A DNA stretch of 64,000 nucleotides. Origin: Chthonomonadales bacterium (GTDB lineage Bacteria > Armatimonadota > Chthonomonadetes > Chthonomonadales > CAJBBX01). The stretch covers positions 6,289-70,288 of the forward strand of contig JADLGO010000064.1 of NCBI GenBank assembly GCA_020849275.1. Direction: 5' to 3'. The notes beneath the pieces were generated by a model, which was given only the letters and a program-made list of their open reading frames with translations, ran no database searches and was not told the DNA's origin. The translations under genes and the position numbers were made by a program. Each line of letters begins with the position of its first letter. Position 1 is the stretch's first letter. Positions 2,174 to 11,009 of the stretch are shown here, in pieces.

Positions 2174-3403
2174 TCAGCGCGGGCCGGCGTGGCTCGCGTT
2201 GAAGGCCGCGATACGCTTCATGAGCGCCGGGTGCGACTCGGCGGTCACGTTGTTGGCCTTCTGCCAGGGGAAGTGCCAGGCCCAGACGGCGGCGAGCGAG
2301 CCGCCCTCGGCCTCCAGCAGGTCGATGGCGGCCGAGACGTAGCGCCCCTGGCGGTCCTCGGCCAGCGTCGGCCTCGAGTTTCCGAGCTCGCCCACGAAGA
2401 TGGGCACGCGCGCCGCGCGGGCGCAACGCACTCGGGCGCGCAGCGCCTCAAGCGAGCTTGGCACGCCCATGTTCTCCTCGGCGTCGCTCTCCGTGAGGCT
2501 GCCGTAGTGGTGGATGGAGAGCAGGTCGAGCGGCTCCGGCTGCTGGGTGAGCAGGCTCGCGAGGTTCTGGCGGAGAGTGTCCCGTGTCCACACCTGCCTG
2601 GGGAAGCTCTCGCGCAGGCTGACACTGGTGGGGCGCGGCCCGGCGTCGCCGCTGGTGACGAGGTGGTTGGCGTCGATGCTCTTGATGAAGGCGGTCATGT
2701 CGGCGTAGAAGCGCAGGATGTCGGCCGTGGTCAGGCTGTCGGCCGCGTTCCACTTGCTCTTGTGCCAGGGGCCGTCCATCACGCCGGGGCCGGGCGCGTC
2801 GCGGCCCTCCGAGTTGACGTCGGCGGCCAGGCAGAGCTCGTTGCAGATCTCCCATGCCAGCACGTTGGTGTCGTCGCGGTAGCGTGAGACGATCTCGCGC
2901 GCGTAGCGGCGCATGGCGGCGTAGGTGCGCGAGCGCGGGTCGGCGATCGCGCTGCAGTCTTCCTCGCAGAGCAGCGGCCACATGGATGCGTTGAAGAAGA
3001 TGCTGGGCACCAGCCGCACGCCGCTGCGACGGCAGAGCGCGAACACCTCGTCCATGCGAGCCCAGTAGGTCGTGGGGTCGTCCCAATACAGGCGCATGTC
3101 CTTCGGCCAGAACCCGGTGGCCCAGAAGCGGATGAAGGCGATGCGCTGCTTCGCCGCGCTGCGCACGGCCTCCTCCGCGCTCCGGCGGGCGGTCCGGGCG
3201 CTGCCGTGGGTCTCCTCGAGGTGCAGGCCGATGCCGGCGTAGTCGGTGAAGAGGCCGGGCGCGTTGACGCCGATGGCTCGGTACTCGCGTCCATCGAGCA
3301 TGAGCCGCGCCCCGTCGCGCGTCACGAACCCGGGCGCGCCGTGGGCCGCGCTCGCGGCGGCGAGGATCGCCGCGGCGGCGAGCGCGGCGCTGGTGATCGT
3401 CAT
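2174..3403 (-). CDS. Secreted clan GH-A (GH5-like) glycoside hydrolase
   Basis: Track ORF 2174..3433 trimmed to the ATG at 3401-3403, with GGAGG 6 nt upstream. Signal peptide MTITSAALAAAAILAAASAAHG. Acid/base-like motif VLAWEICNE and nucleophile-like motif VPIFVGELG. Confidence 0.75.
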   Translation of the reverse strand: MTITSAALAAAAILAAASAAHGAPGFVTRDGARLMLDGREYRAIGVNAPGLFTDYAGIGLHLEETHGSARTARRSAEEAVRSAAKQRIAFIRFWATGFWPKDMRLYWDDPTTYWARMDEVFALCRRSGVRLVPSIFFNASMWPLLCEEDCSAIADPRSRTYAAMRRYAREIVSRYRDDTNVLAWEICNELCLAADVNSEGRDAPGPGVMDGPWHKSKWNAADSLTTADILRFYADMTAFIKSIDANHLVTSGDAGPRPTSVSLRESFPRQVWTRDTLRQNLASLLTQQPEPLDLLSIHHYGSLTESDAEENMGVPSSLEALRARVRCARAARVPIFVGELGNSRPTLAEDRQGRYVSAAIDLLEAEGGSLAAVWAWHFPWQKANNVTAESHPALMKRIAAFNASHAGPR

Positions 3404-3434
3404 GGGAACCTCCGTGTGGTGACCGGCGCGCACA

Positions 3435-3468
3435 TCGCGCGCCGGCCTCGTCGCTCCTGCCGCGAGCG
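3435..3468. repeat. Left copy of 34-bp direct repeat TCGCGCGCCGGCCTCGTC(G)CTCCTGCCGCGAGCG
   Basis: Read directly. Identical to 6011-6044 except position 19 (G here, C there). Lies 32 nt upstream of the GH5-like start on the minus strand. Confidence 0.9.
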
Positions 3469-3705
3469 CCGCTTCCGACCTGGTTGGCTCCTGTGCGCGA
3501 CCTCACCCCGTCGGGCTCACAGCGACGGTATGCGCAGGCAGTTCGGCGAGACCGCACGGCATAGAGGCTGGTTTCGGAGGACGACTGGAAGCCAGAGCGC
3601 GTGGATCCCTTGTGGTCGTCGGCACCGTGACTGGTCGACGCTCACGAGCATCAGACTACCCCCGCCGACCTCCTTGTACTGCGGTCAAAGGCTGCGCTGC
3701 CCCAG

Positions 3706-4491
3706 CTATGCAGGAGGCGGTACGCTCCATACGTGCAGGCGGTTCTCGAAGCCGCTCTCGACCATCCAGATCTCGTCCTCGCCGTTGACGACCTCCAGGA
3801 TGGCGCGAACAAAGAGCTTCTCGAAGAAGAACGCTACCTGCCCAGCCTCCGCTGCGCTCTCGCACGGGAATATGAACCGCGTGACGGCGGTCGTCTCATC
3901 AATCAGGTAGCGCGACGGATCGGTCAACGCCTCCTGTCTGGGCTTGAGGCCTCCCGCGCGGAAACGCCCGCTTACATGGTAGATCGAATACCCACCGAAC
4001 TTGCGCCCGATCCACTCGAGGACACCCTGTCTGTACTTATCATTATCTGCTTCATCGCGTGGAAACACCTTCTCAATGTCCTTCTGAGAGATCGTATCGA
4101 GTTGTACGTCGAGGGTGTCCTTATAGAATAGCGAGTCGAGAACACCGCGAAGCGCGTTTTCGTTCGAGAGTGGCATAAAGAACTCGTAGATACGAACGAT
4201 GGTGTGTACATTGTGCTTATAGATCTCAACTGCACGCCGCACCTGAGTCACATGTCGCTGAAAGGAGGACCAATCCGCGAAGCGGCTGAAGGCGTCACTA
4301 ACCCGAAAGGCAACTTTGTTCCCATCAACCTCCAGAACCAGTCGGAGAAACTGTTTGGACCAGTACGTAGCAAAGCTTGTTACACTCCAGTCAGTCTTAT
4401 CCCGTAAGTCCTCCTTCTTGAAAGGCTTCTTTGAATTCCAATGCTCAACTAGAAACTCAAATGCTCTGCGCTGATTGGTGTCAGAAGGCAT
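3706..4491 (-). CDS. Hypothetical protein (261 aa), third gene of the cassette operon; no family recognised
   Basis: ATG at 4489-4491 with GAGGGA 6 nt upstream, 24 nt after the methyltransferase stop. This is the lowest-GC gene in the window. Non-repetitive, balanced amino-acid composition (MPSDTNQRRAFEFLVEHWNSKKPFKKEDLRDK...), so it looks like real coding sequence. Confidence 0.75.
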   Translation of the reverse strand: MPSDTNQRRAFEFLVEHWNSKKPFKKEDLRDKTDWSVTSFATYWSKQFLRLVLEVDGNKVAFRVSDAFSRFADWSSFQRHVTQVRRAVEIYKHNVHTIVRIYEFFMPLSNENALRGVLDSLFYKDTLDVQLDTISQKDIEKVFPRDEADNDKYRQGVLEWIGRKFGGYSIYHVSGRFRAGGLKPRQEALTDPSRYLIDETTAVTRFIFPCESAAEAGQVAFFFEKLFVRAILEVVNGEDEIWMVESGFENRLHVWSVPPPA

Positions 4492-4515
4492 GGTGAGTCC
4501 CTCGATTAGCTTGCT

Positions 4516-5400
4516 CTACCCCATCGACCTATCCGTGCATTCCGGAGGATAGTTGCGGATGATCAACTCTGGGACCTTACCCCGCGCATCGGCCTTGGAA
4601 TTGACTGTCCGCGTCGCGAAGACGCATTCGACATCGCCATCGCGATCACCGCCATAGTGGCTATAGAGCTGCCGGATCAGCGGTGTGTCCGAGTTTGAGA
4701 GCATCGCATAGGTGCCTCGATTGGTGAGATCATCGAAGACGTCGCGGAGCCGAGTCTGGTCTGCTTCTCCGAAGCCTGTGTGGTGATACGCAGTGAACCG
4801 CGAGGTCGCTGATACGGGGTGATACGGTGGATCGAGGTAGACCATGTCGTCTTTACGCGGTTCCGCGAGTACCTCGGAGAACGGCGCTGTACGGATCTCG
4901 ACTCCTTGAAGGACCCTCGCGGCGGCGCGCAGATTGGCCTCATCGACGATGGCGGGGCGCCGATGGCGACCGAATGGAACATTGAACCGGCCAGATCGGT
5001 TCTCGCGGTAGAGGCCGTTGTAGCAGGTCTTGTTCAGATAGATGACGCGCGCCGCGCGAGCGGCGATGTCGAGCGTACTCGCGTCTTTGTCCCGGATCCC
5101 ATAGTAGTAGGCTTCCTCGTACCGGTGCTTCCGGAGTTCCTCAATCACGAGGTCCACCCGGTCGCGCAGGGCGAGGTAAACATCCACGAGGGCCTGGTTC
5201 ACGTCCGATAGAAGCGCGTGCCGGAGCCTGCCCAGCGATGCCAACTCGAAGAAGAGCGCCCCGCCACCCACGAATGGCTCGAAATAACGGTCGAACGTCG
5301 ATGGCACGCGCGCGATTAGCTCGGAGAGGAGTTGGCCTTTGCCTCCTGCCCATTTGAGCACGGGGCGGGCCCGCGGCGCACCATTCGACTCATGTGGCAT
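4516..5400 (-). CDS. Dam/D12-class N6-adenine DNA methyltransferase (alpha-type motif order)
   Basis: LKWAGGKGQLL, the SAM motif YFEPFVGGGALFF, then the catalytic VYLDPPY near the C-terminal third. ATG at 5398-5400 overlaps the upstream nuclease-like ORF by 11 nt. Confidence 0.9.
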   Translation of the reverse strand: MPHESNGAPRARPVLKWAGGKGQLLSELIARVPSTFDRYFEPFVGGGALFFELASLGRLRHALLSDVNQALVDVYLALRDRVDLVIEELRKHRYEEAYYYGIRDKDASTLDIAARAARVIYLNKTCYNGLYRENRSGRFNVPFGRHRRPAIVDEANLRAAARVLQGVEIRTAPFSEVLAEPRKDDMVYLDPPYHPVSATSRFTAYHHTGFGEADQTRLRDVFDDLTNRGTYAMLSNSDTPLIRQLYSHYGGDRDGDVECVFATRTVNSKADARGKVPELIIRNYPPECTDRSMG

Positions 5401-5794
5401 TGGGCTCTAGTCCGAAGAAGAGGGCGAGCCAATCGCCCAGGTCAGCGAGGTCAAGCACCTTCCCAGTCGACAACAGATAGCCTCGCATATTGGCCGAGAA
5501 CCCGGGACCCGCGATGACCACGATCCCTCGGATTGGCCATGCTGCAATGTCGTTGAGCACGGCGGCTATCTTCTCCTCCGCCGACCCCGAAGTGGCCTGG
5601 AACTTGCACTCAACGCCCAGTGCCAGGCGAGTCGTCGGGTGAGTCAGCACGACGTCGATGTAGCGCACCGCGCCCCACACGCGGCGACCGACCCTAACCT
5701 CGATCCTGACTTCGAGGCCGAGGCGCTCGCCCAAGTATACAACCGTCTGCCTCAGGCCGCTCCCACTACTCACCGCCGCAGCTCCCCCAGGCAT
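5390..5794 (-). CDS. Small PD-(D/E)XK-type nuclease-like protein (134 aa), first gene of the cassette operon
   Basis: Track ORF 5390..5827 (TTG) trimmed to the ATG at 5792-5794, with GGAGGGA 6 nt upstream. Motif arrangement is RYIDVVL...(14 aa)...LGVECKF, i.e. D...ExK, followed by SGSAEEK. From memory this resembles the catalytic core of DpnII/MboI-family enzymes; this is unverified. Confidence 0.6.
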   Translation of the reverse strand: MPGGAAAVSSGSGLRQTVVYLGERLGLEVRIEVRVGRRVWGAVRYIDVVLTHPTTRLALGVECKFQATSGSAEEKIAAVLNDIAAWPIRGIVVIAGPGFSANMRGYLLSTGKVLDLADLGDWLALFFGLEPNAT

Positions 5795-6010
5795 CGGCGC
5801 TCCCTCCGTTCGCGTCATCTCCAGCAACGCAAGTCGTTACGTGGGCACCGCGATCGCTGGCGCCGAGAGCGCGGAGTTGCTCCGCTAGGGAATCGTAGCA
5901 CAGGCTGGCAGGTCCGCGACGCCCTACGCGCGTGTAGCTCGTAGGCGAGCCCGACTCGAGCCTGGCCCTGATGTCGTCACATCCCTGCGCGCGGGCCAAC
6001 ATCCGCGTTT

Positions 6011-6044
6011 TCGCGCGCCGGCCTCGTCCCTCCTGCCGCGAGCG
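6011..6044. repeat. Right copy of 34-bp direct repeat
   Basis: TCGCGCGCCGGCCTCGTC(C)CTCCTGCCGCGAGCG, read directly. Lies about 120 nt upstream of the 6163 start. Confidence 0.9.
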
Positions 6045-6162
6045 ATCGCCCGCTCGCGCCGCTACGCGGCCCACTGAGAGGGCCGGGCGGCGCGGCCGGC
6101 GAACAGAGGGCTCGGATGCCGCGGCGCCGCGCCGCGCGCCCATGGAGGAGGCCCTGAACACG

Positions 6163-8325
6163 ATGGAGGCCATGCTCACTCCCCGAGGCGTCCGCCGCGC
6201 CGGGCGCGCTGCCCTGCTCGCCCTGGCGGCGCTGGCGGCGCTGGCCGCGCTGCCCGCCGGGCCGTCGCGGGCCGCGCCCCCGCCGCCCGCGGGCAGGCCG
6301 CTACGCGTGGAGAACGCGTGGGTGCGCGTGGAGGCCGACCTGGCGAACGGATCCATTCTCCGCGTCCTCGACCGCGAGGGCGGCGTGGACCTCGCCGCCG
6401 ACCCCGCCCTGGCCGACAGCTTCCGCCTTCTACTGCGGCTGCCGGGCGGCCGGCGCCTCTGGGTGCGGGGGCGCGGGCAGGCGCTCTCCGCCGCGGAGCC
6501 GCGCGAGGGTGGCTTCGCGCTGCTCTGGAACGGGCCGCTGCGAGACGAGGCCGGCGGCGCGCACGCGATCGCGGCGCGCATGGGCGTCCGCCTTCGGGGC
6601 CGCTCCGTGCGCTTCGACTTCGCGCTGGACAACCGCTCGCGCGCCGTGGTGGAGGAGGTGTGGTACCCCGTGCTGGGCGGCTTCAGCCGCTTCGGCCCGT
6701 CGGCCGACGGCGCGACGCCGTCCACGCGCGAGCGGGCGGTCATCGACACGCCTCCGTGGATCAAGCCGCTCACGCTGCCTTTTGGCGAGCTCACGCCGCT
6801 CTACCCGGGCCAGCTCCAGATGGGGTTCGTAAGCGTGACGAACCCCGCCATCCGGCGCGGCCTCTACATCGGCTCGCACGATGTGACGCCCAGGCTGAAG
6901 GCCTTTCGTTTCGCCGAGGCGCGCAATGGGGACGCTGCCGATATCGTGGCCCAGCTCGTCCACTTTCCGTTCACCCGGCCGGGCGCTCGCTTCTCGGCGT
7001 CGCCGCTCGTGCTGCGCTTCCACGCCGGCGGCTGGCGTGAGGCCGGAGGCGTCTATCGCGACTGGTTCGTGCGCACCTTCGGCCTGGCCGACCCGCGCCG
7101 CGACTGGATCCGCCGCCAGGGCTTCTTCGTGATGACGATGTTCATGCTGCCCGAGGGCAACGTCAACTACCGATTCCGCGACATCGCGCGCTGGGCCCGC
7201 GCCGCCCGCGACTACGGCGTGCGCGCGGTGCAGATCGCCGGCTGGCAGTGCGGCGGCCACGACAACGGGTACCCGCTCTACACGCCCGACCCGCGGCTGG
7301 GAACCTGGAAGGAGCTCGAGGAGGGTATTCGCGCCTGCCATCGGATGGGTGTGCGGGTCTATTTCTTCGTCAACATCCAGCCGGCCATGCTGGACATCGC
7401 CTGGTACCGTCGCGAGCTCGAGGGCTACGCGGCCGTCAGCCGCCGGGGAGATCCCTACTGGATCGCTGGCTGGGGCATGGGCACCCTGGCCTCCCGCATG
7501 GGCCTTACCACGCCGCAGATGGCCTTCCTGGATCCCGCGTTCCCGGCCTTCCGGCGCGCGCTCGTGCGCGACTTTCGGCGCCTCGCCGAGGTCGGCGCCG
7601 ACGGCATCCATATTGACAAGATGTTCCCCGCGCTGCTGGACATGAACCCGCGCGCCCCGCTCGGACCGGACCGCTCTACCTGGCAGGGCGCGCTCGACAC
7701 CATCCGCGACATCGCGCGAGCCTGCCGCGCCGTCCGTCCGGGCTTCGCCATCTCCAACGAGTGCAACTGGGACCGGGTGCTCACCTACGGCGCCGCCACC
7801 TGGTGGGCAGGCAACATGAGCAACGCGCGCGCCGTGTTTCCGGAGGTTGTGGAGACCGTGGGCCACTACCAGCCGTGGGACTACGCGGGGCTCAACAACG
7901 CGGTGCGCCTGGGCCACGCCGTGATGCTGGCGCCGCACCAGTTCAGCCGCGACATGCGCTGCGAGACATGGCGCACCGGCATGTCGCCCTATGTGCGCGA
8001 GCTGAAGCGGATCCGCGACCGCCTGGCGGAGATCGTCTTCCTCGGGGAGCCGCGCGAGCGCGGCGAGGCGCGCTTCGAGGGCCTGCCGAAGGACTCCGCG
8101 CTCGACTTCGCCGTCTATCGCGGCCCTCGCTCCGGACGCCGCGCCTGCATCGTCACCAACGGCGCCTCCGCGCCGCGCACCGTCACGTTCGTTGGCTTCG
8201 ATGGAGGCCCGGGTGGCCGCGTGCGCGTCCATCGCCCCTTCGAGCGGCCCGTTGAGGCGGCGCTGCCGGCCCGGCTGCGCCTGCCCGCCGAGGGCATCGC
8301 CTTCATCGTGGAGGTGGCGCCATGA
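6163..8325 (+). CDS. Exported glycoside-hydrolase-like TIM-barrel protein (DUF6259-like by recollection), paralog A
   Basis: Track ORF 5971..8325 trimmed. ATG 6163 has GGAGGAGG 10 nt upstream; ATG 6142 and 6172 are alternatives. Signal-like RRAGRAALLALAALAALAALPAG. Barrel-type motif VGADGIHIDKMF and an NE-containing strand GFAISNECNWD. Confidence 0.7.
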   Translation: MEAMLTPRGVRRAGRAALLALAALAALAALPAGPSRAAPPPPAGRPLRVENAWVRVEADLANGSILRVLDREGGVDLAADPALADSFRLLLRLPGGRRLWVRGRGQALSAAEPREGGFALLWNGPLRDEAGGAHAIAARMGVRLRGRSVRFDFALDNRSRAVVEEVWYPVLGGFSRFGPSADGATPSTRERAVIDTPPWIKPLTLPFGELTPLYPGQLQMGFVSVTNPAIRRGLYIGSHDVTPRLKAFRFAEARNGDAADIVAQLVHFPFTRPGARFSASPLVLRFHAGGWREAGGVYRDWFVRTFGLADPRRDWIRRQGFFVMTMFMLPEGNVNYRFRDIARWARAARDYGVRAVQIAGWQCGGHDNGYPLYTPDPRLGTWKELEEGIRACHRMGVRVYFFVNIQPAMLDIAWYRRELEGYAAVSRRGDPYWIAGWGMGTLASRMGLTTPQMAFLDPAFPAFRRALVRDFRRLAEVGADGIHIDKMFPALLDMNPRAPLGPDRSTWQGALDTIRDIARACRAVRPGFAISNECNWDRVLTYGAATWWAGNMSNARAVFPEVVETVGHYQPWDYAGLNNAVRLGHAVMLAPHQFSRDMRCETWRTGMSPYVRELKRIRDRLAEIVFLGEPRERGEARFEGLPKDSALDFAVYRGPRSGRRACIVTNGASAPRTVTFVGFDGGPGGRVRVHRPFERPVEAALPARLRLPAEGIAFIVEVAP

Positions 8326-11009
8326 CCCGCGCCCGCGCGCTTCTCGGCTTGCTCGCGCTGGCGACGCTCGGAGCCCCGCCAGCGGCCGGCGGGACCGCCC
8401 ACCGTGCCGTGGGCGCCGGCCCACCCAACCCGGACTTCGAGACCGGCGACCTGCGCGGCTGGACCGCCGACGCGAACTGGACCGTCGACGACAACTCGGC
8501 CGGCGGCTGGTACAGCGGCTGGCAGGGGCGATGGTTCGCGTGGAGCGGCCGCGGCGGCGAGCCGAGGACGGGGCGTCTGCGCTCGGCGCCCTTCACGCTC
8601 GACCATGACGGCGTGGAGGTCTGGGTGGCCGGCTGGGCCGACATCTCCGGCCGCACGACGGACCGCTGGAACTACGTGTCGCTGCGCCTGGAGGACGGCC
8701 GCGAGGTCGATCGCGTCTACGCGCCGAACAGCGTCGCCTTCGTGCCGCTCGTGCTGGACGGCAGCGGCCATCGCGGGCGCAAGGTGGTGCTGGAGGCGGT
8801 CGACGACGGCGATCAGTCCGTGTTCTCGATGATCTGCATCGACCACGTGCGCACCGTGGACCTGCGACCGGCCCCGCGCGCCACCTGGCGCGACCCGGCC
8901 GGCTCCCACGTGCTCGAGAACGCGAGCTGCCGCGTGGAGGTGAGCCGGCGCAACGGCTCGATCACGCGCATCCGTGATCGCGTGGGCGGTCTGGAGCTGA
9001 TCGGCGAGCCACGGCTGGCGGGCAGCTTCAAGCTGACGCTGCCCATGCCAGGGCGCGAGGCGTGGCGGGCCACGGAGGCAAACGAGGTGCTCGGCAGCGC
9101 GCAGCGGCTGACGAGCGTGCGCCGCGCGCGCGATTCGCTGGAGCTCACCTGGGCCGGCCCGCTGCGCGCGGCGTCCGGCAGGCGCTACCCGGTCTCGGTG
9201 ACGATGCGCATCGCCCTCGGCGGCGAGGAGGTGCGCTTCGACCTGATCGTGCGCAACCGGAGCCGGCTGCCCGTGGGCGAGGTGTGGTACCCGCTGATCG
9301 GCGGCATGAGGGGCCTTGGCGCGCGCGCGAGGGACTGGGAGCGCACCGTGCTCTACCTGCCCACGGGGGCGGGGTTGGCGTCCGCGCGCCCGTTCCACAC
9401 CTTCCAGAACATGAGCTGGCTGGGCGTCATCGGCGCCGAGCAGTACTACGCCTACCCCGACTCGCTCTCGATGCCGTGGATCGACCTGCAGGCGCCGCGG
9501 CTCCGGCGGGGCGTCTGGTTCGCGGCGCTCGATCGGGCCAGCCGCTTGAAGGTGGCGCACCTGGAGATGTCGCCCGGCCTGGCCTCCGCGCGCCCCGGCG
9601 GCAACTGGCCCCGCCCGGAGGAGCTGCGCGGCCTTCCTGCCGGGGTGCGGGCCTGCTGGGTGCACATGCCCTATAAGCCGGCCGGCCGTGACTTCAGCGC
9701 CTCGACGGTGGTCCTGCGCTTCCATTCCGGCGGCTGGCGCGAGGCGGCGCGCCTCTACGGCGTCTGGTGGCGCGCCGGGCACACGGGCCCGGCGCCCGAA
9801 CCGGGTGACGCCTGGCAGGAGTGCGCGCCGGAGCGCTTCGATGACCTGCCCGCCCTCGCGCGCGGGGCGGCCGCCGCCGGCGTTCGCACGCTGCTGTTGG
9901 TCGACTGGAAGGCAGGCGGGTATGGCGACGGCGTGCCGCGGCTGGAGCCGGACGCGGCCCGGGGCGGCGCTGAGGGGCTGCGCGCCGCCCTCGCTGCCTG
10001 CCGTGCGCTCGGCGTGCGCGTGCTGCTGCGCGCCGGCCTGCAGCCCGTCTCGCTGCACGACGAGTGGTGCCGGCGCGTGCTGGCGCCGTTCGTCTGCCGC
10101 GACCGCTGGGGGGTGGAGCCTTCGGCGTTCGGCTGGGGGTCCGGATCGACGCTCTGGGAGCGGTGGGGCTCCGGCGAGCGGCGCGTGTGGCTGACGCTGG
10201 GCGCGCCCGGACTGCGCGCGGAGCTTGCAGCGCAGGCACGACGGCTGGCCACGCTGGGCGTGGACGGCCTGCACTTCGACTCCTACTTCGGGCGCACGCT
10301 GGACTTCAACCCTCTTTCCGGCTCGACGCCGGACCGAGCAGCGTGGGAGGGCGGCCTGGCCGCCGCGCGCGACATGCGGAGCGCGGGCGATGGCGCGCGC
10401 CCGGGCTTCACGGTGACGTTCGACGACGTGCGCGACGGCCTGGTCGCGTTCGGAGGCGCTTCGCGCGCGGCGGCCGCGGAGCCCTCCGCGTTCCGCGAGG
10501 CCTTCCCGCGCTGGCGACCGGACGTGCAGGCGGCCTCGCCGGACGCCCTCGGCGCCGTCGGGGAGGCACTGCGGCTGGGGGCGCGGGTGCGCGTGACGCT
10601 GCCCGGCGGGCTCACGCTGGCCGACGCGCGGTGCGCGGCGCTGGCCGCTCGTCTGCGGGAGCTCGGGGCCATTCGCGCGGCGCTCCCCGCGAGCCTGGCG
10701 CGCGGCGAGCCGCTGGACCCGGCCGGAGCGGACGTGCAGGGCGGCCTGCCGGTCGGCCTGTGGCGCGACCCGGCGACGGGCCGGCGCGCTTGCGTGGTGA
10801 CGAACCCCGGCGCATCGGCGGGGTCGGTCACGGTGCACGGGCTCGGCGGCGGCCGTCGCGCAGCGCGGATCTACCGCCCGGGCTTGTCCGCGCGGGCCGT
10901 TGCGCTCCCCGCCACACTCACGGTGGAGCCTGGCGGCTTCGTGGTCATTGCCGAGCGCGAGGGAGCCCCGGTACCACGGGCTTCGACGGAGGGCGCCGGG
11001 GTACACTGA
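8322..11009 (+). CDS. Paralog B of the preceding GH-like protein with an extra N-terminal CBM4/9-like beta-sandwich domain
   Basis: ATGA overlap with paralog A. Signal peptide MTRARALLGLLALATLGAPPAAG. N-terminal NPDFETGDLRGWT... lectin/CBM-like segment of about 180 aa. Blocks alignable with paralog A include RFDLIVRNRSRLPVGEVWYPLIGG, VVLRFHSGGWREAARLYGVWW and GVDGLHFDSYF. Confidence 0.7.
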   Translation: MTRARALLGLLALATLGAPPAAGGTAHRAVGAGPPNPDFETGDLRGWTADANWTVDDNSAGGWYSGWQGRWFAWSGRGGEPRTGRLRSAPFTLDHDGVEVWVAGWADISGRTTDRWNYVSLRLEDGREVDRVYAPNSVAFVPLVLDGSGHRGRKVVLEAVDDGDQSVFSMICIDHVRTVDLRPAPRATWRDPAGSHVLENASCRVEVSRRNGSITRIRDRVGGLELIGEPRLAGSFKLTLPMPGREAWRATEANEVLGSAQRLTSVRRARDSLELTWAGPLRAASGRRYPVSVTMRIALGGEEVRFDLIVRNRSRLPVGEVWYPLIGGMRGLGARARDWERTVLYLPTGAGLASARPFHTFQNMSWLGVIGAEQYYAYPDSLSMPWIDLQAPRLRRGVWFAALDRASRLKVAHLEMSPGLASARPGGNWPRPEELRGLPAGVRACWVHMPYKPAGRDFSASTVVLRFHSGGWREAARLYGVWWRAGHTGPAPEPGDAWQECAPERFDDLPALARGAAAAGVRTLLLVDWKAGGYGDGVPRLEPDAARGGAEGLRAALAACRALGVRVLLRAGLQPVSLHDEWCRRVLAPFVCRDRWGVEPSAFGWGSGSTLWERWGSGERRVWLTLGAPGLRAELAAQARRLATLGVDGLHFDSYFGRTLDFNPLSGSTPDRAAWEGGLAAARDMRSAGDGARPGFTVTFDDVRDGLVAFGGASRAAAAEPSAFREAFPRWRPDVQAASPDALGAVGEALRLGARVRVTLPGGLTLADARCAALAARLRELGAIRAALPASLARGEPLDPAGADVQGGLPVGLWRDPATGRRACVVTNPGASAGSVTVHGLGGGRRAARIYRPGLSARAVALPATLTVEPGGFVVIAEREGAPVPRASTEGAGVH

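Follow-up and report, generated by a model that had tools for sequence, protein, structure and literature searches.

A restriction-modification-type cassette, probably inserted with duplication of target sequence, in a Chthonomonadales (Armatimonadota) lineage

The stretch of DNA analyzed here, referred to as the window, comprises 64,000 nucleotides of an NCBI metagenome-assembled genome (MAG) of a Chthonomonadales bacterium, phylum Armatimonadota (assembly GCA_020849275.1, contig JADLGO010000064.1, positions 6,289 to 70,288; locus tags IT208_17045-17060). It harbors a three-gene cassette of the restriction-modification (R-M) type, which lies between a GH5-family glycoside hydrolase gene and a divergently oriented DUF6259-family gene and is bracketed by two copies of a 34-bp direct repeat. 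The cassette was most probably inserted with duplication of target sequence and without a recombinase encoded by the element itself. This reading is carried by the comparison of the filled site with an empty one in a sister lineage, by the composition of the cassette and by the lack of mobility genes in and around it.

The left copy of the repeat, TCGCGCGCCGGCCTCGTCGCTCCTGCCGCGAGCG, occupies positions 3435-3468, and the second copy, at 6011-6044 in the same orientation, is identical to it at 33 of 34 positions (G to C at position 19), with 2,542 bp separating the two. A preliminary description of this DNA had given these coordinates, the orientation, the single mismatch and the spacing, all of them exactly. 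The filled structure is not an assembly artefact, because six filled-site Logan contigs, taken from the run series SRR11294xxx and SRR24928xxx, agree with the window base for base (100% identity); the same filled gene order recurs in more than ten contigs in addition to the NCBI MAG. Two short Logan contigs that end near the cassette (L004 and L010) were considered as hidden empty-site variants and rejected, their sequence being that of the cassette up to their ends.

The clusters formed by the flanking genes at 90% identity each include a variant (P0122 for GH5, and P0124), encoded on four contigs of the runs SRR27710292-295. In all four assemblies 215 bp separate the divergent GH5 and DUF6259 genes, without the cassette, and the intergenic sequence is identical in the four samples. 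The empty-site contigs (L038-L044) contain exactly one copy of the 34-mer, which matches the two window copies at 30 and 31 of its 34 positions. On the left this lineage matches the window at 95.9% identity (3,440 bp) and on the right at 94.7% (12,351 bp), and in a blastn alignment of contig L042 with the window the homology stops at 3440 and restarts at 5987; with the left 34-mer, the sequence derived from the target reaches 3468. Divergent genes, a single 34-mer and no cassette are what the preliminary description had predicted for an empty site in a relative, and the runs SRR27710292-295 agree with it on each point. When the GTDB species representatives were scanned with the GH5 protein, the best relative was 53% identical and none was syntenic, which leaves this set without an empty site.

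Both alleles can be described by the same segments. The empty site reads A-B-C-D, where A ends in the hexamer TCGCGC (L042 7221-7226), B comprises the 27 bp (7227-7253) between this GH5-proximal hexamer and the 34-mer, C is the 34-mer (7254-7287), which itself begins with TCGCGC, and D runs into the DUF6259 gene. In the filled site the order is A-C-insert-B-C-D, with C on the GH5 side coming directly after A. Its parts are located in the window as follows.

3435-3468, plus strand: left copy of segment C, the 34-bp direct repeat, 32 bp ahead of the GH5 start codon; 30/34 identical to L042 7254-7287
3469-5986, minus strand: the insert, apparently foreign DNA of 2,518 bp without counterpart in the sister lineage; GC 0.60
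3469-3705, minus strand: non-coding 3' end of the insert, downstream of its last gene; GC 0.66
5795-5986, minus strand: non-coding 5' end of the insert, presumed from its position to be the promoter region of the operon; GC 0.67
5987-6010, plus strand: segment B, derived from the target and present to the right of the insert only; 22/24 identical to L042 7230-7253, the first 3 nt (ACG) missing
6011-6044, plus strand: right copy of segment C, the 34-bp direct repeat, about 98-128 bp ahead of the start of the DUF6259 gene; 31/34 positions shared with the copy of the empty site

At the left repeat copy, similarity to the empty site may continue for a further 4 bp (CCGC, to 3472).

On these sequences the polarity appears clear, namely insertion in the filled lineage, as indicated by the retention of segment B in the empty site, the divergence of the repeat copies and the foreign composition of the insert. 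If the present repeats recombined, B would be lost and A-C-D would remain; as the empty site still has A-B-C-D, it was not produced by excision from the present structure. The two window copies differ from each other at one position in 34, and each differs from the orthologous empty-site copy at three to four, so that the duplication post-dates the split of the lineages. An opposite history, whereby the cassette is ancestral and was lost from the sister lineage through recombination between the flanking repeats, can appeal to the fact that direct repeats promote deletion, and with only two lineages the polarity has to be drawn from indirect arguments. This history is nevertheless highly improbable, as a deletion of this kind would remove segment B, which the empty site keeps between A and C, as the repeat copies are more alike mutually than either is to the orthologous copy, and as the GC content at third codon positions (GC3) and the tetranucleotide usage of the cassette are far from those of the host. 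Even with a loss, the repeats presuppose an earlier insertion with duplication.

The composition of the cassette departs from its surroundings by every measure applied. The interval 3469-6010 has a GC content of 0.60 against 0.72-0.74 in the flanks and is the sole low-GC island of the window; GC3 is 0.66, 0.73 and 0.75 in the cassette genes compared to 0.92-0.95 in five resident genes; and the tetranucleotide distance between the insert and the rest of the window is 0.453, where the background is 0.186 ± 0.028 with a maximum of 0.258. The closest homologues of the cassette proteins, at 57-72% identity, come from other phyla. The spot counts of 45%, 53% and 60% GC in the preliminary description were recomputed as 0.45, 0.533 and 0.60, and the windowed GC and tetranucleotide profiles which it had named as a check set the insert apart.

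The 34-mer could also be a dispersed element resembling repetitive extragenic palindromic (REP) sequences, or a chance repeat of GC-rich DNA, with the cassette merely situated between two copies. Imperfect short repeats are indeed abundant in GC-rich genomes, and 16 families of them occur in 4.5 kb here, yet these remaining local repeats near the 34-mer are a GC-rich background of 66-85% identity. The 34-mer, counted within the window on both strands with up to 3 mismatches, is present in two copies and no others, both flanking the insert, while 100 dinucleotide-preserving shuffles of the sequence gave zero matches, such that none is expected by chance; moreover, one copy stands at the orthologous position of the sister lineage. 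A REP-like dispersed element is thus refuted within the 64-kb window, and the explanation as a whole is hardly credible.

The preliminary description had explained the repeats by duplication of one intergenic site on insertion. The empty site with its single copy upholds that part of the proposal; a clean duplication of 34 bp does not stand, because a clean one would give A-B-C-insert-C-D, and segment B is found on one side only. The joining route preferred here, tentatively and at close to an even chance, is duplication followed by deletion, which is favored because it matches a documented mode of insertion. The foreign operon most probably entered the promoter region of 215 bp from which GH5 and DUF6259 are divergently transcribed, in one Chthonomonadales (Armatimonadota) lineage, after the split from its sister at about 95% identity. 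Along the preferred route, the target stretch B+C, of 58-62 bp (L042 7230-7287, or to 7291 with the extra CCGC), would have been duplicated to give A-B-C-insert-B-C-D, and the GH5-side copy would then have been shortened by 33 bp through slippage between its TCGCGC hexamers, so that a repeat of 34 bp remains today. Linear DNA may have been integrated illegitimately, with the duplication produced either by breaks that were widely staggered or by a joining that involved two sister duplexes. Each flanking gene would have retained segment C beside it, and with it its upstream regulatory sequence.

It is conceivable, if rather unlikely, that the junction was instead formed in a single step by a templated join. 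The break would lie just after the GH5-proximal TCGCGC (L042 7226/7230) and the right end of the foreign DNA would be ligated to B; on the left side, the chromosomal TCGCGC end would anneal to the second TCGCGC, 33 bp off, on the sister duplex and copy about 28-32 nt (C), and the copied C would be joined to the foreign DNA at the CCGC microhomology, the 34-bp repeat being a templated fill-in. One event would suffice where the preferred route needs two, the filled allele corresponds exactly to A(TCGCGC)-C-insert-B-C-D, the target having lost only 3 nt (ACG), and microhomologies of 6 bp (TCGCGC) and 4 bp (CCGC) lie precisely at the switch points. However, TCGCGC is frequent (112 copies in 64 kb), so that the microhomology could be a coincidence, templated insertions are documented mainly in eukaryotic alternative end joining, and the sequences hold no direct evidence of such a join.

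Two short motifs near the junctions were also considered. The octamer GCGATCGC, which contains GATC/CGATCG, occurs twice at a distance of 190 bp, at 5850-5857 inside the 5' non-coding end of the insert and at 6042-6049 on the outer side of the right repeat, where a CC to ATC difference relative to the empty-site lineage creates it; with 11 occurrences of GCGATCGC in the window, the pair may be due to chance. Whether GATC or GCGATCGC marks the footprint of a recognition site at the junction led to no conclusion, considering these 11 occurrences and an empty site without GATC. The hexamer CACATC (3431 and 5978), taken as a sign of a longer duplication, was rejected, as this would require a 4-nt gap and three mismatches.

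The Pfam labels of the genes in the cassette and within about 10 kb of it include no integrase, transposase, resolvase or phage gene, and a comparison of the insert ends revealed no terminal inverted repeats, the best match between them being an internal 9-mer. The preliminary description had reported neither integrase, transposase nor terminal inverted repeats, and the same picture emerges here. Insertion of an insertion sequence (IS) or transposon was rejected, given no transposase, no terminal inverted repeats and a duplication of at least 34 bp as opposed to the short ones (2-14 bp) of such elements. An integrase-mediated island was likewise rejected, as no recombinase is found in the cassette or within about 10 kb and an Rfam scan of 3300-6300 returned no family match, tRNA included. 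The locus resembles tRNA-targeted islets and integrase-mediated R-M islands in its foreign composition and target-derived direct repeats, yet differs from them in having no integrase, no tRNA and no conserved attachment (att) core, and in the asymmetry of its duplicated segments.

A further form of site-specific integration would treat the 34-mer, or an inner core of it, as an att site, and the cassette as a non-autonomous element mobilized in trans by a recombinase of the tyrosine or serine type encoded elsewhere. An island surrounded by direct repeats of 30-50 bp is typical of att duplication, and a related module (L110/L117) is situated at the 3' end of a tRNA-Gln with a 31-bp duplicate. 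Against this, an integrase is absent from the cassette and from the DNA within 10 kb of it, nor was a tRNA the target; the one-sided segment B would not result from conservative exchange within the 34-mer; and the cassette has no second copy in the protein collection, where the three 90%-identity clusters of its proteins each contain the product of this locus alone, with the nearest homologues at 57-72%. Integration of this type is thus very unlikely.

Insertion with target duplication has precedents among R-M systems. Insertion of R-M units with long target duplication was reported by Nobusato, Uchiyama, Ohashi and Kobayashi (2000, Gene 259:99; reference 37 in PMC2853133), and "insertion with long target duplication" was defined by Furuta, Abe and Kobayashi (2010, NAR 38:2428, PMC2853133) by the presence of restriction (R) and modification (M) genes, an insert of <20 kb, repeats of >30 bp that align to one sequence of the empty site and are not a multi-copy genomic element (<10 further copies), and no mobility genes. 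Their cases, in which the repeats measure 24-423 bp, come from Helicobacter, Haemophilus, Campylobacter, Neisseria, Thermus, Microcystis, Burkholderia, Acidovorax and Clavibacter; high-GC hosts are among them, for example Clavibacter (29 bp), Acidovorax (57/64) and Burkholderia (384/412). The repeats often span gene starts and leave the neighbors intact, and the authors suggest that double-strand breakage by the R-M system may take part, proposing as well an amplification and release of repeat-flanked units.

The Chthonomonadales locus has M and R homologues, a 2,518-bp insert, 34-bp repeats that fall inside the published range and exceed the >30 bp limit only narrowly, an empty site with a single copy, and no mobility gene. 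As in the published cases (PMC2853133), its repeat is located at the 5' ends of the neighboring genes, both of which are intact; unlike them, its host belongs to the phylum Armatimonadota (Chthonomonadales) and its three-gene cargo is uncharacterized. It also departs from a clean long target duplication in having a 27-bp target segment on one side only. The suggestion in the preliminary description that a phenomenon of Helicobacter pylori is seen here newly in an unrelated high-GC lineage was overstated, as PMC2853133 already includes Burkholderia, Acidovorax, Clavibacter and Thermus.

The three genes of the cassette (3706-4491, 4516-5400 and 5390-5794) form a single operon, all on the minus strand; that they are co-oriented had been recognized in the preliminary description. 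In the order of transcription they are as follows.

5390-5794, minus strand: gene 1, predicted minimal PD-(D/E)XK nuclease of 134 amino acids (aa), PDDEXK_11 (PF20472, 2.7e-17)
4516-5400, minus strand: gene 2, Dam-family N6-adenine DNA methyltransferase of 294 aa (PF02086, 1.1e-58; TIGR00571, 1e-82; PADLOC Type II MTase, 1.2e-90)
3706-4491, minus strand: gene 3, uncharacterized protein of 261 aa ("unk261") with a predicted winged-helix N-terminus

The nuclease gene overlaps the start of the methyltransferase gene by 11 bp, and the gene of the 261-aa protein begins 24 bp past the methyltransferase stop on the same strand. In the NCBI annotation the nuclease has 145 aa, with a TTG start at 5827. 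Its residues D47...E62-x-K64 are invariant or near-invariant in 35-40 homologues, and its AlphaFold2 (AF2) model, with a predicted local distance difference test (pLDDT) score of 84.7, matches AF1548, the endonuclease domain of the R2 retrotransposon, MspJI, Hjc and NucS in Foldseek (E 2e-4 to 5e-3). As modeled, the 134-aa protein is a bare catalytic core of restriction-endonuclease-like fold, with a predicted activity; a literature search for PDDEXK_11 found no papers. The methyltransferase carries FVGGGA and DPPY as its motifs for S-adenosylmethionine (SAM) binding and catalysis. The gene content expected of a Type II R-M system is thereby present, namely a methyltransferase with SAM-binding and catalytic motifs and an adjoining nuclease with D...ExK.

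The 261-aa protein is less readily placed. Its AF2 model (pLDDT 83.5) has an N-terminal winged helix, for which Foldseek gave weak winged-helix matches with E above 0.04, and a C-terminal domain with the invariant acidic motifs DETTAV and GEDEIW, which has no structural match in Foldseek. The protein and 47 members of its family, scanned singly, have no match in Pfam, NCBIfam or PADLOC, and a PDB sequence-profile search with the family alignment gave nothing below E = 0.18. The most conserved motifs of the family, DETTAV, RFIFPC and GEDEIWMVE, coincide with the stretches that are modeled least confidently (residues 191-210 and 231-261; pLDDT 58-73). Speculatively, such conserved strands of low confidence would fit an ordering of the chain upon binding of a partner, for example the 134-aa nuclease.

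The 261-aa protein is thus probably a DNA-binding or second subunit of the nuclease, and the operon would represent a Type II R-M-like system in which the predicted endonuclease consists of two subunits, a catalytic core and a winged-helix partner, because within the family the nuclease and the 261-aa protein stay together despite a variable gene order and exchanges of the methyltransferase. Heteromeric Type II restriction enzymes such as BspD6I, BtsI and BsrDI combine a small catalytic subunit with a larger one for DNA recognition. The present operon is similar in encoding a 134-aa PD-(D/E)XK core near a larger winged-helix protein and a methyltransferase; unlike these enzymes, the cassette proteins bear no sequence or fold similarity to them, and the subunit pairing and cleavage are predicted.

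The non-coding ends of the insert were scanned as well. The 3' end (3469-3705) showed no credible open reading frame (ORF), no Rfam match and, in a simple scan, no terminator-like site, and four terminator-like matches found elsewhere were dismissed, as all lie within coding sequence at a number near the shuffle expectation. No consensus site was found in 5795-5986 by a promoter scan that covers the sigma-70 type alone.

Homologues of the cassette proteins are numerous, with 848 for the 261-aa protein (all unnamed; the best non-self match at 57% identity) and 990 for the nuclease (nearly all unnamed). The family was surveyed in 80 metagenome loci that encode a 261-aa homologue, and neighbors were counted at the 17 loci whose flanks extend at least 2.5 kb to either side. 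A DNA methyltransferase adjoins the 261-aa family gene in 16 of these 17. A small PD-(D/E)XK ORF is present in 13 of the 16 methyltransferase-linked loci, seven detected by tblastn and six as gap-filling ORFs, the latter divergent, 138-198 aa long and located between the methyltransferase and the 261-aa gene; the other three loci were not resolved. The methyltransferase partner is either of the Dam class or a beta-class enzyme (PF01555, for example in L060), and since its class varies beside the pair of nuclease and 261-aa protein, it has been exchanged during the evolution of the family. The beta-class N6/N4 methyltransferase replaces the Dam-class enzyme in a large subgroup (L060 4676-5599 and many of L052-L078), and the gene order varies among the loci. 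A tblastn search with the 261-aa protein found no match among PLSDB plasmids or INPHARED phages.

Of 30 related loci whose flanks could be used, two separate ones, L091 and L110/L117, are bracketed by long direct repeats without an integrase. In L091 (PDWJ01014161.1) the repeats are at least 68 bp long (66/68 identical; 1497-1564 and 5219-5286), with weaker similarity about 30 bp further upstream, and the contig ends within the right repeat; the module between them comprises a 105-aa ORF, the 261-aa family gene, a Dam gene, a PDDEXK_11 gene and a BrnT toxin gene. In L117, as in L110, the module is found directly 3' of a tRNA-Gln (125-198), and the tRNA 3' end is repeated perfectly over 31 bp at about 4360-4390, some 4.2 kb downstream. 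None of the extra-module ORFs between the copies in L117 is of integrase size, and the one scanned against Pfam (134 aa) had no match. This locus may represent an islet that targeted the tRNA and has since decayed, or else a further long target duplication. Although without empty sites, L091 and L110/L117 raise the possibility that the family has moved repeatedly by repeat-flanked insertion. A bolder proposal, which is improbable, would see the three-gene family as a self-mobilizing R-M unit whose own two-subunit nuclease makes widely spaced staggered breaks and so produces long target duplications; it would explain the integrase-free long repeats at L091 (at least 68 bp) and at L110/L117 (31 bp, at the tRNA end).

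Several points weigh against an R-M-type cassette inserted with target duplication. A single empty-site lineage is known in the databases; the next GH5 protein matches are at most 68% identical, and the context of one of them (P0130, 67%) was examined and is not syntenic. The count of the 34-mer covers 64 kb, not the whole genome, and a recombinase may have acted in trans. The junction departs from the clean one-step product A-B-C-insert-(B-)C-D, such that a second event or another kind of joining is needed, and no intermediate was found. Finally, both enzyme activities, their sequence specificity and the part played by the 261-aa protein are putative.

The resident genes on either side of the cassette are the following.

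2174-3403, minus strand: GH5 glycoside hydrolase of the cellulase/mannanase family, 409 aa (PF00150, 1.7e-10); GC3 0.95; orthologue P0122 in the empty-site contigs
6172-8325, plus strand: DUF6259-family protein, 717 aa (PF19773, 3.5e-07); its cluster members have 717 aa

The GH5 start at 3403 on the minus strand is as the preliminary description had it. The plus-strand neighbor, placed there near 6163, starts instead at one of two ATG codons, 6142 or 6172. The second is the likelier start; both lineages share it and NCBI uses it (717 aa), and the in-frame ATG 6142 (727 aa) reads ACG in the empty-site lineage. A second, paralogous DUF6259-like gene (8322-11009) follows the first (6142-8325) in tandem, stop and start overlapping in ATGA, and the pair adjoins a GH42-family gene and a nucleoside hydrolase gene, while an ABC sugar transporter is encoded on the GH5 side. 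The surroundings look like a polysaccharide-utilization cluster split by the cassette at a divergent promoter.

The present locus is a further instance of a known mode of insertion, in a new phylum, with an uncharacterized cargo and an asymmetric junction, and not a new phenomenon. It provides a well-documented natural movement of an R-M unit without a recognizable mobility gene, in which the filled and empty alleles are available at about 95% identity, and it extends the host range of this mode of insertion to the Armatimonadota. The asymmetric junction constrains the mechanism to a 58-62-bp duplication followed by a slippage deletion, or to a microhomology-templated join. The large unannotated family to which the cargo belongs (more than 800 homologues; a 261-aa component without a Pfam model) is consistently linked to methyltransferases and is a candidate for a new type of restriction enzyme; if it were indeed self-mobilizing, it would open the mechanism behind insertion with long target duplication to experiment. 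Current understanding is not overturned by these findings, and the most useful leads they offer are the predicted two-subunit nuclease family and a pair of alleles from which the mechanism of insertion may be deduced.

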